Positions 34,722-35,882 of a stretch of 41,292 bases of DNA are shown one piece after another (within the stretch, counting starts at the first letter, position 1; each line of letters opens with the position of its first letter). Source of the DNA: a virus (Duplodnaviria > Heunggongvirae > Uroviricota > Caudoviricetes); IMG/VR virus record IMGVR_UViG_2718217862_000001; one strand, 5' to 3'. Under the pieces are notes generated by a model that worked only from the letters and a program-made list of their open reading frames with translations, was not told where the DNA came from and did not search any database. The translations under genes and the position numbers were made by a program.

Positions 34722-34750
34722 GAGTCGCTCCATAAAACTGAACGTCAAAA

Positions 34751-34766
34751 GTTTAATAATCAAAAC
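34751..34766. promoter_or_regulatory. Operator-like 16-bp site O1 overlapping predicted pR -10
   Basis: GTTTAATAATCAAAAC; pR candidate on minus strand TTGACT-18-TAAACT. Confidence 0.45.
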
Positions 34767-34796
34767 CAAAGAAAGTCAAGAAACAAAACCATCTGT

Positions 34797-34812
34797 GTTT
34801 TAAAATCAAAAC
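34797..34812. promoter_or_regulatory. Operator-like 16-bp site O2 abutting the repressor start codon
   Basis: GTTTTAAAATCAAAAC ends 1 nt before repressor ATG; contains TAAAAT -10-like hexamer. Confidence 0.45.
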
Positions 34813-35451
34813 ATGAGCAAGCAAACTATATCTGAACGCATAACCCAACGTATGCATGCGCTAAACCTGAAAGGCAAAGACCTTGTCAATGGCACTGGCG
34901 CATCAAAAGGCTCCGTAAGTCAATGGATGAACGGTGGAGGAGCGCCGTCCTCGCGTTACATAAGTTCACTGGCAAAAATATTGAAAGTAAACGAAAATTG
35001 GCTTCTTAATGGAGGAGAGTTAAATACAGGTGATTCGCTTGATCTATCTTTACCGCCGATAAAAACGGTTCCGCTACTATCACTTCAGCAGGCAGCAAGC
35101 TGGAGTGATTATATGAAAAATTCCTCAATAACCTCTTGTGTGCAGCTTGTCGGAGAAATCCCGGTCAATACCTTTGCAGTTGTTCTAGAGAGTGACAGTA
35201 TGTCAACATCTGGTGGGGGAGTTTCCATCCCAAATGGTTCAACAGTTTTTGTTGATCCCGATCGAACCGTACAACCAGGAAATATTGTCCTTGCCTTACC
35301 CAAAGGGACCACAACACCTGTCATTCGTAAACTGGAGATAGAAGGGCCGGATATTCTTTTAGTCCCCACGAATCCTCGCTACCCTTCAATTATGCTGGAT
35401 GATCTATCTTGCATATTGGGCGTATGCTTTAAAATTCAACAAGATATTTAA
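34813..35451 (+). CDS. cI: CI-like repressor (N-terminal HTH, C-terminal S24 LexA-type autopeptidase)
   Basis: 212 aa; C-terminal region aligns by eye with lambda CI (DSM, VDP..V.PG, RKL, NP.YP). Confidence 0.8.
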   Translation: MSKQTISERITQRMHALNLKGKDLVNGTGASKGSVSQWMNGGGAPSSRYISSLAKILKVNENWLLNGGELNTGDSLDLSLPPIKTVPLLSLQQAASWSDYMKNSSITSCVQLVGEIPVNTFAVVLESDSMSTSGGGVSIPNGSTVFVDPDRTVQPGNIVLALPKGTTTPVIRKLEIEGPDILLVPTNPRYPSIMLDDLSCILGVCFKIQQDI

Positions 35452-35518
35452 CCAACCTCATCTATTTGATTAACTGTATGCCATCGTGGTGATGGCTTAA
35501 CAGCTGCCTGCTTAAAAT

Positions 35519-35534
35519 GTTTTGATAAAAAAAC
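35519..35534. promoter_or_regulatory. Operator-like site OL adjacent to early-left promoter
   Basis: GTTTTGATAAAAAAAC, same family as O1/O2, abuts -35. Confidence 0.4.
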
Positions 35535-35535
35535 A

Positions 35536-35564
35536 TTGACCTGAAAAGTTCGTTTTTCTAAACT
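35536..35564 (+). promoter_or_regulatory. Candidate early-left promoter (pL / PdicB-like)
   Basis: TTGACC, 17-nt spacer, TAAACT; same -10 hexamer as the pR candidate. Confidence 0.4.
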
Positions 35565-35882
35565 TCATTCATTCCCTCACCCCATCCTACAGAATGCAGG
35601 GCAATACTTCGAGTTACCAGGCAGTGGTCAGGGGTTAAGTAGCCAGCCCGAGGCGTAAGAACATGACGGCAGGGTTCAACTTTAATAACTATGCAGCAGG
35701 TTTTTGTTCCGCTACCCCGGCGTTAAGGGGAAACAGAGGATTTCTCAGTGGGCGAAGTCAAACATCAGAATGGAAGGCGTCCAGGGATCAGCAAAGAAAC
35801 AGCGATGGCGCTTTATATTGATATCAGCGCCATTGCCGGACAGGTAAGAATTATCAGAGCGGTAACTAAGCGGTATGCGCCT

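Follow-up and report, generated by a model that had tools for sequence, protein, structure and literature searches.

A probable lambdoid immunity region of the Qin/Rac type with a three-site OR, a related site at OL and a leaderless repressor mRNA

The switch layout of phage lambda and its leaderless cI mRNA are established knowledge, and DicA, of the Qin dicA-dicC/dicB system, is a short protein with an HTH only. The details of the lambda switch are summarized in PMC8630535. In the CP-933P system of E. coli EDL933, the mRNA of PaaR2, whose partner is YdaS/YdaT, was found to be leaderless by 5′ RACE (PMC8630535). The CP-933P repeats have GTTTAGTAA as their consensus; OR contains four palindromes and PL has three operators, and binding there has been demonstrated by EMSA and footprinting (PMC8630535, PMC9986795), whereas we infer the sites reported below from sequence.

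The window (the whole 41,292-bp stretch of DNA analyzed here) very probably includes a lambdoid immunity region from an E. coli prophage of the Qin/Rac type, with a three-site OR, a related site, O3, at OL, and a leaderless repressor mRNA (Table 1). A repressor with HTH and S24 domains and a Cro protein are encoded divergently around a 91-bp control region, with dyad-symmetric putative operators over the cores of pR and the pRM-like promoter. The repressor matches Peptidase_S24 (49 bits) and HTH_3 in Pfam, and lambda cI, residues 2-62 of the 434 repressor and residues 1-69 of P22 C2 in the PDB, the E-values of its N-terminal domain being 2e-4 for the 434 repressor and 2e-3 for P22 C2. S129 (in DSM) and K173 (in RKL) align with S149 and K192 of lambda and are invariant, so that the Ser-Lys dyad is present. 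The predicted autocleavage site is QA/AS (A94-A95), aligned to QA/GM of lambda and invariant in all variants; the linker reads Ala-Ala at the scissile bond instead of Ala-Gly or Cys-Gly. Cro matches P22 Cro (PDB 1RZS) with E = 2.5e-8, and is annotated as DicC-like. YdaT shares about 97% identity with PDB 3C4R and about 88% with the CP-933P YdaT (8BT1). The candidate YdaT operator, TTGATTTTCATGAATCCC, matches the published CP-933P YdaT site TTGATTN6AATCAA at 10/12 positions, occupies the same place as that site, at the end of the cro-like gene, and is kept in relatives, where UC4316 reads AATCAA.

Table 1. Features of the immunity region, in window coordinates.
Feature	Position	Strand	Details
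ydaT, CII-like activator gene	34070-34495	-	Pfam YdaT_toxin; follows cro
cro, lytic repressor, 80 aa	34479-34721	-	Pfam P22_Cro, E = 1e-15, 57.6 bits
Candidate YdaT operator (putative)	34485-34502		TTGATTTTCATGAATCCC; cro/ydaT junction, pRE region
pR	34743-34779	-	-35 TTGACT 34779-34774; 18-nt spacer; -10 TAAACT 34755-34750; +1 34743
O1 (OR1-like)	34751-34766	+	GTTTAATAATCAAAAC; covers -8 to -23 of pR, including its -10
Candidate middle operator (OR2-like; putative)	34774-34789	+	AGTCAAGAAACAAAAC; covers pR -35
O2 (OR3-like)	34797-34812	+	GTTTTAAAATCAAAAC; -16 to -1 of repressor promoter; directly adjoins ATG
pRM-like maintenance promoter	34801-34813	+	-10 TAAAAT 34801-34806; weak -35 AAGAAA (3/6); +1 34813
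cI-type repressor, 212 aa	34813-35451	+	434/P22-like HTH N-terminal domain and S24 autopeptidase C-terminal domain (S129, K173)
Hairpin GCCATC-N5-GATGGC	35479-35495	+	Between cI stop and O3; seen in RNA fold
O3 (OL)	35519-35534	-	GTTTTTTTATCAAAAC on minus, GTTTTGATAAAAAAAC on plus; -52 to -37 of pL
pL	35536-35571	+	-35 TTGACC 35536-35541; 17-nt spacer; -10 TAAACT 35559-35564; +1 35571

The three related 16-bp sites claimed in the preliminary description of this DNA were recovered at exactly the same coordinates by a match scan, a repeat search and a PWM. Exact matches to GTTTWWWWATCAAAAC occur in the 41,292 bp at O1, O2 and O3 only; with up to two mismatches 0.30 matches are expected, and at least four were obtained in 0/100 shuffles. 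The pattern GTTT-N8-AAAC occurs four times against 0.64 expected. Copies of O1, O2 and O3 make up the top family of the repeat search, which was run independently, and they score 23 to 24 bits on the PWM made from them, the next best position in the window scoring 15.9. The sites share an identical 8-mer and a GTTT/AAAC dyad, giving a 16-bp consensus of GTTT-N8-AAAC with a conserved ATCAAAAC half, and are located between the divergent cro and cI genes and just 5′ of pL. O1-O3 are genuine sites and not chance occurrences; their use as operators by the repressor and Cro is what we would propose from their sequence and setting. The operator sequences gave no hits in a search of the literature. 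The best match elsewhere, at 31011-31026, was rejected as an off-target operator and is ascribed to chance, since it falls within a small ORF distant from any switch. All three sites had been said to overlap promoter core elements, which holds for O1, lying over the -10 of pR, and for O2, which covers the -10 and +1 of the promoter of the repressor gene; O3 abuts pL, ending 1 bp upstream of its -35 and overlapping neither hexamer.

An independent promoter scan returned TTGACT-18-TAAACT on the minus strand (34779-34750) and TTGACC-17-TAAACT on the plus strand (35536-35564), the same hexamers and spacers as proposed earlier for pR and pL. It also gave a promoter-like site on the plus strand at 34678-34707. 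Published Cappable-seq starts of EDL933 (PMC10469882, Supplementary Table S5) were transferred onto the window from a copy of the module that is 98% identical to the module here; the two copies agree fully in their OR promoters and operators and in the hexamers and spacing of pL, and the single base that differs in OR lies outside promoter hexamers and operators. The EDL933 starts fall where the hexamers of the preliminary description predict. The start at 1896620(-), present in 8/8 conditions, coincides with the A of the repressor's ATG (window 34813), while 1896690(+), in 2/8 conditions, and 1895862(-), in 6/8 conditions, correspond to window 34743 and 35571, respectively (PMC10469882). Each of the three is the 7th nucleotide after its -10 hexamer, and the pR and repressor starts are 70 bp apart. 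We also considered a pL driven from TAAAAT at 35513-35518, with O3 at its start, and rejected it, as UC4316 does not conserve this hexamer and the start was mapped to 35571. The one strong related operator at pL is O3; a second OL site over the pL -10 (35552-35567) was not found, the PWM rank there being merely in the top 2.5-7% of 16-mers.

Leftward transcription from pL would read the ydfC-dicF-dicB-recE operon, and ydfC, the DicF RNA (Rfam, 76.7 bits), dicB and ydfD are found 3′ of the promoter. Part of the pL leader, about 35578-35700, is common to phages of other immunities, and a structured RNA in the leader (35571-35750) is unsupported, with a fold z-score of +1.1 and no Rfam match. The hairpin downstream of cI keeps its stem and varies in its loop among relatives, is without a U-tract, and is possibly a weak terminator or an RNA-stability element.

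The conservation tests are within-family comparisons. O1 and the promoter hexamers are unchanged where the repressor is just 84% identical and flanking bases vary. O1 is identical in all diverged copies, O2 shows a single A>G variant in three of them, and O3 is nearly unchanged in relatives, as are, essentially, the pL hexamers (-35 TTGACC or TTGACT, -10 invariant). Variation in the OR intergenic region affects 1/48 operator positions vs 15/43 others (Fisher P = 4e-5), and at OL 3/28 site and hexamer positions vs 54/121 others (P = 9e-4). A pattern scan of IMG/VR gave 120 stretches, about 23 of which are unrelated chance matches; in the about 97 copies, O1 and the middle site are without any change. 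The 84% variants sharing the same operators also have an identical HTH segment, TGASKGSVSQW. Sequence shared with phages of other immunities begins only at about 35578, and therefore O3 and pL move together with the gene of the repressor. The module is present in 1042/5426 complete E. coli genomes (about 19%), including O157:H7 EDL933, and also in inducible phages. A genome-contig scan gave no distant relatives in which co-variation of operator and HTH could be followed, and a search of 5.8 billion proteins gave solely proteins of 72-100% identity; neither search found close repressor relatives outside E. coli prophages. In a tblastn of phages, repressor identity drops from 98% to <30% with nothing between.

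It is very improbable that the 16-mers are not operators of repressor or Cro, being instead A/T-rich repeats associated with promoters or sites of the CII-like YdaT. They are A/T-rich and lie in promoter regions, and one half of the YdaT motif, TTGATT, occurs in O2 on its complementary strand, but an AATCAA half 6 bp away is found in none of them and a proper YdaT-type site is available at the cro/ydaT junction. Moreover, their centers differ by promoter (-15.5 at pR, -8.5 at the repressor promoter and -44.5 at pL), so that no single promoter element fits; the common 8-mer with its dyad is what would be expected of dimeric HTH proteins, and at mosaic boundaries the sites and the cI-cro module are inherited together. 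With O1-O3 taken as operators, OR probably holds a third, weaker site at 34774-34789 in lambda-like 23-bp phasing. Only the right half of this site, AACAAAAC, fits the consensus (7/8, against 1/8 for the left half), and its PWM score is 6.3 bits vs 24 for O1 and O2, which would suit an OR of just these two operators, 46 bp apart, with the pR -35 and an A-rich upstream stretch between them. This simpler layout is possible, if somewhat unlikely. The half-site lies exactly midway between O1 and O2, in 23-bp phase with both (P = 0.004 for an in-phase match in composition-matched shuffles), and the site ranks in the top 0.1% by PWM. Its conservation is partly due to the enclosed pR -35, and the -35 regions of pR and of the repressor promoter could account for it; however, the site is unaltered in relatives, including, in the 81-84% variants, positions 34780-34789 outside the pR -35, while the neighboring 34791-34794 vary. 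The center of the middle site is at -31.5 relative to the repressor start, vs about -42 for the corresponding site in lambda, and lambda-style activation of the maintenance promoter is therefore unsupported.

As had been noted before, the repressor ATG stands right after O2, without an SD and with TAAAAT just upstream: the hexamer ends 6 nt before the ATG, and the 20 nt upstream pair with the anti-SD at +0.9 kcal/mol, the values elsewhere being -5.6 for cro (GGAG) and -11.0 for ydaT. There is no start further upstream because of an in-frame stop at 34801-34803, 9 nt 5′ of the ATG. The earlier suggestion that this mRNA starts at the AUG is borne out by the EDL933 start at the A of the ATG, with no repressor start 5′ of it listed in any of the eight conditions (Supplementary Table S5, PMC10469882), and a leaderless repressor mRNA is thus directly supported. 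This RNA would also be the translated species, with the protein beginning at its 5′-terminal AUG. It is improbable that the repressor comes mainly from a leadered transcript or a downstream start (M14 at 34852 or M101 at 35113), the RNA starting at the ATG being untranslated or minor. The RefSeq/PGAP annotation does cover 35113-35451 alone, the C-terminal 112 residues, in 6/6 records inspected, GenBank ON470612 begins the gene at 34852 (Met14), ATG 35113 has a GGAG SD (-5.9 kcal/mol), and a leadered transcript might come from the promoter-like plus-strand site at 34678-34707 or from a probable YdaT-dependent pRE. However, the start at the ATG is the sole repressor start in all eight conditions, and a protein beginning at M14 or M101 would lack helix 1 or the entire HTH domain, although the alignments begin at residue 1 with P22 C2 (query 1-69) and residue 6 with the 434 repressor. 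In addition, codons 2-13 appear to be under purifying selection (synonymous differences in 7 codons and one replacement among the variants compared), and pR is silent in 6/8 conditions, which argues that a DNA-binding repressor is being made. We therefore keep the start at 34813, which restores the DNA-binding domain to the repressor annotation, mis-annotated because the mRNA is leaderless.

The working of the switch may be pictured as follows, the pairing of proteins with sites, binding order, cooperativity and looping being deduced from the arrangement. In the lysogen, repressor dimers would bind at O1, in probable cooperation with the middle site, and turn pR off, while O2 would be mostly unoccupied, so that the maintenance promoter would continue firing from the A of the AUG and the repressor would be translated from the leaderless transcript. 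A rise of the repressor to high levels, or the appearance of Cro, would fill O2 and end repressor synthesis. In the EDL933 lysogen the pRM start is seen in 8/8 conditions and the pR start in 2/8 (PMC10469882). Repressor bound at O3 would hinder pL by crowding its -35, and looping of the DNA may pair O3, which lies 722 bp from O2, with OR. Repression of pL may nevertheless be weak, because O3 misses the pL hexamers and the pL start is present in 6/8 EDL933 conditions. A tentative extension, which we consider doubtful, is that a single O3 upstream of the -35, with nothing over -10 or +1, makes pL only partly repressible, so that lysogens would transcribe ydfA/ydfC-DicF-dicB continuously; if so, the prophage repressor would not silence DicF but would determine how much of this small RNA the host receives at baseline. 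The pL start in 6/8 conditions vs 2/8 for pR is consistent with such continuous reading.

The design of the switch is familiar, and the understanding of lambdoid switches is unaltered by it. The GTTT-N8-AAAC operator with its ATCAAAAC half would represent a previously undescribed immunity specificity, and superinfection immunity among E. coli prophages could be predicted from the operator set; the module is common. The repressor transcript is the third leaderless prophage-repressor mRNA of E. coli with a mapped start, after lambda cI and CP-933P PaaR2.

Like lambda OR/OL, the locus has repressor and Cro genes in divergent orientation, three OR sites at a spacing of about 23 bp with the pR-proximal one on the -10, a weak -35 of the repressor promoter, a 6-nt gap between its -10 and an AUG coinciding with +1, the leaderless repressor mRNA, the S24 C-terminal domain, and OL/pL downstream of cI on the same strand. 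Unlike those of lambda, its operators are 16 bp long and unrelated to the lambda 17-mers, its OR3-like site abuts the ATG (center -8.5), placing the array about one helical turn nearer the repressor gene, the pR and repressor starts are 70 bp apart, and a single OL site can be detected, 5′ of the -35; Cro is of the all-alpha P22 type, YdaT stands in place of CII, and the cleavage site is Ala-Ala. CP-933P, which is present together with this module in EDL933, has in common with it a YdaT of about 88% identity, the TTGATT-N6-AATC type of site at the cro/ydaT junction, a short divergent intergenic region (97 bp vs 91 bp here) and a PL-like promoter with related operators. PaaR2, in contrast, is a 15-kDa protein expressed with the paaA2-parE2 toxin-antitoxin pair and is not of the HTH-S24 kind. 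Through its N-terminal domain the repressor aligns with P22 C2 and the 434 repressor, as does Cro with P22 Cro, and the operators, like those of 434, keep their outer 4 bp and vary in the center, whereas repressor identity is <30% and the operator sequence is different. With Qin dicA-dicC/dicB the locus shares the leftward operon of ydfC, DicF, dicB and ydfD and a DicC-like Cro, and it differs from Qin in having an S24-containing repressor of the cI type.

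The proposal that the repressor mRNA is leaderless is supported, decisively, by transcription starts mapped with Cappable-seq under eight conditions in E. coli O157:H7 EDL933 (PMC10469882, Suppl. Table S5; NZ_CP008957.1 coordinates), whose copy of the module is 98% identical to the window, differs in the OR region by one base outside any element, and keeps the hexamers and spacing of the leftward early promoter pL. The reported starts are 1896620(−) for the LexA-family repressor gene (8/8 conditions), 1896690(+) for the divergent gene (2/8), and 1895862(−) for the DUF1391 gene 3′ of the repressor (6/8) (PMC10469882). 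Read on the EDL933 sequence, the first falls on the A of the repressor's ATG (34813), and the others correspond to 34743 (+1 of the cro promoter pR) and 35571 (+1 of pL). All three are the seventh nucleotide past a −10 hexamer (TAAAAT for the repressor, TAAACT for pR and pL), so the calls agree with one another, and a promoter scan recovered both pR and pL as originally proposed. Further repressor-gene starts at 1896603, 1896559, and 1896522 are internal and condition-specific (PMC10469882); none of the EDL933 starts of this gene lies upstream of the ATG. The refuting observation named in the preliminary description, 5′ ends well upstream of it, is thus not borne out, and the leaderless claim stands.

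Translation from the 5′-terminal AUG appears well supported by the sequence itself. The absence of a Shine-Dalgarno (SD) element is borne out, the 20 nt upstream giving +0.9 kcal/mol with the anti-SD (cro, −5.6; ydaT, −11.0), and an in-frame TAA (34801-34803) rules out any earlier start codon. The helix-turn-helix (HTH) domain aligns from residue 1 with P22 C2 and from residue 6 with 434 repressor, and codons 2 to 13 show seven synonymous differences and one replacement among variants. The repressor start is nonetheless systematically mis-annotated across public genomes, a point of practical importance: GenBank ON470612, a phage record, starts at Met14 (34852), and RefSeq/PGAP at Met101 in 6/6 records inspected, leaving only the C-terminal 112 aa (35113-35451), which means loss of helix 1 or of the entire HTH domain, respectively. 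The PGAP call arises because a GGAG SD (−5.9 kcal/mol) precedes the ATG at 35113; since this ATG also lies just past the predicted cleavage site, the C-terminal domain may be translated separately from it. That site, for RecA-stimulated autocleavage, is predicted at codons A94-A95 (35092-35097; QA/AS, aligned to lambda QA/GM). The predicted scissile bond, invariant in all variants, is Ala-Ala where Ala-Gly would be canonical, and the Ser129/Lys173 dyad is intact, which makes SOS inducibility of the repressor uncertain.

The three 16-mers O1 (OR1-like), O2 (OR3-like), and O3 (OL) were found by reading the sequence where the preliminary description had placed them. Exact GTTTWWWWATCAAAAC occurs in the window only in these sites; with up to two mismatches 0.30 matches are expected, and four were obtained in no shuffle. 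They form the top family in a repeat search of the window and score 23 to 24 bits with the operator PWM, against 15.9 bits for the next 16-mer. Each has the outer dyad GTTT...AAAC, with one half a perfect ATCAAAAC and the other degenerate. The half-site AACAAAAC (34782-34789) is exactly equidistant from the ATCAAAAC half of O1 (34759) and that of O2 (34805), which would give three OR sites at 23-bp spacing; the probability of an in-phase half-site is 0.004 in composition-matched spacer shuffles. We regard 34774-34789 as a candidate OR2-like site; the evidence for it is weaker than that for O1, O2, and O3. A PWM search for a second OL site found none. The top off-target match to the PWM, ATATTAATATCAAAAC (31011-31026; 15.9 bits), falls in an A/T-rich part of a small ORF close to hok/sok and probably arose by chance.

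Features of the immunity region and its surroundings
Feature	Position	Strand	Remark
YdaT/CII-like gene	34070-34495	minus	
cro	34479-34721	minus	P22_Cro family
O1	34751-34766		
O2	34797-34812		
Repressor, 212 aa	34813-35451	plus	Peptidase_S24 domain and HTH domain
O3	35519-35534		
118-aa ORF, GTG start	35748-36104	plus	3′ of pL; hypothetical in ON470612
68-aa ORF, antisense	35883-36089	minus	weak zinc-ribbon matches; overlaps 118-aa ORF
ydfC, DicF RNA, dicB, ydfD, recE-like exonuclease	3′ of repressor	plus	

The centers of O1, the middle site, and O2 lie at −15.5, −38.5, and −61.5 relative to pR +1, and at −54.5, −31.5, and −8.5 relative to the repressor start. O2 overlies the −10 and start point of the repressor promoter, and an occupied putative O2 could shut off repressor synthesis. 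Lambda cI activates PRM from the −42 position; the array here is about one helical turn nearer the repressor gene than that of lambda, so the middle site is not at this activating position, and positive autoregulation should not be taken for granted. The maintenance promoter, which drives the repressor, was on in 8/8 conditions in the EDL933 lysogen and pR in only 2/8 (PMC10469882), from which we infer occupancy of O1, alone or together with the middle site, and an O2 that is mostly free. O3 spans −52 to −37 of pL and ends one base ahead of the −35; it would repress pL either through crowding of the −35 or through an OL-OR loop across 722 bp. Thus, overlap with promoter core elements holds for O1 and O2, while O3 abuts the pL −35 hexamer; the observation is otherwise confirmed and its interpretation supported. 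Because pL started in 6/8 conditions, its repression may be incomplete, and the comparison with pR suggests that silencing of the leftward ydfA-dicF-dicB-type operon is not tight.

The repressor belongs to a narrow family. A search of 5.8 billion proteins gave relatives only at 72% to 100% identity, a scan of one-genome-per-species contigs gave none, and among phages identity falls directly from 98% to <30%; a diverged lineage within the family (UC4316 and three further module copies) stands at 81% to 84%. In seven aligned copies, 1/48 operator positions vary in OR vs 15/43 other intergenic positions (Fisher P = 4e-5), and 3/28 operator and hexamer positions vary in OL vs 54/121 (P = 9e-4). 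O1 and the middle site are unchanged in about 97 IMG/VR copies, which fits an HTH segment, TGASKGSVSQW, identical across all variants. In the UC4316 module stretch (81% identical), annotation gives cro a frameshift (positions 1279-1522 of that stretch) and breaks the repressor up into an N-terminal pseudogene plus a C-terminal CDS, although its 212-codon frame is intact. With phages of other immunity types, the shared sequence begins only at about 35578, which makes O3 and pL part of the immunity module. Part of the pL leader (35578-35700) is 91% to 96% identical in such phages (Evi, vB_EcoS-666R9, and others), where it carries no annotation; it folds as RNA with no unusual stability (z = +1.1), and no Rfam match was found for it. 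A hairpin (GCCATC-N5-GATGGC, 35479-35495) without a U-tract, its loop variable and stem unchanged in relatives, lies 3′ of the repressor stop codon and ahead of O3; it may restrict transcription that runs on from the repressor gene into the pL operon, which has the same direction.

The window represents a lambdoid phage or prophage of E. coli: across 34400-35700 it is 100% identical to vB_EcoS-640R1 and vB_EcoS-813R8, both induced phages, and module 34700-35580 is present in 1042/5426 complete E. coli genomes (at least 80% coverage). A second point of practical importance is the operator motif now defined for this widespread E. coli prophage immunity group. Rfam matches at gathering threshold comprise DicF sRNA (36737-36788), two STnc100 copies (26596-26784, 27060-27253), sok antitoxin RNA (30678-30853), a tRNA (27607-27679), and a partial ALIL frameshift pseudoknot (1-72) at the window edge. 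Relatives carry ydfA (DUF1391) at the position of the overlapping 118-aa and 68-aa candidate genes.

The region adds a new example to a familiar class of switch. The repressor can be aligned with lambda cI, 434 repressor, and P22 C2, the switch logic is that of lambda, and the pR-relative operator centers are close to lambda's; no paper in the literature collection searched has the operator sequences. The nearest characterized relative is the PaaR2/YdaS/YdaT switch of CP-933P, likewise in EDL933, for which the repressor mRNA was found leaderless by 5′ RACE and the operators were footprinted (PMC8630535). Its YdaT is ~88% identical to YdaT here, and its footprinted YdaT operator is TTGATTN6AATCAA (PMC9986795). 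At the cro/ydaT junction, TTGATTTTCATGAATCCC (34485-34502) matches that site at 10/12 positions and is kept in relatives, its right half being AATCAA in UC4316; judged by this resemblance, it likely serves YdaT as a pRE-type control site. Repressor, Cro, and operators here differ from those of CP-933P; the window couples a distinct immunity specificity to the same CII-like module.
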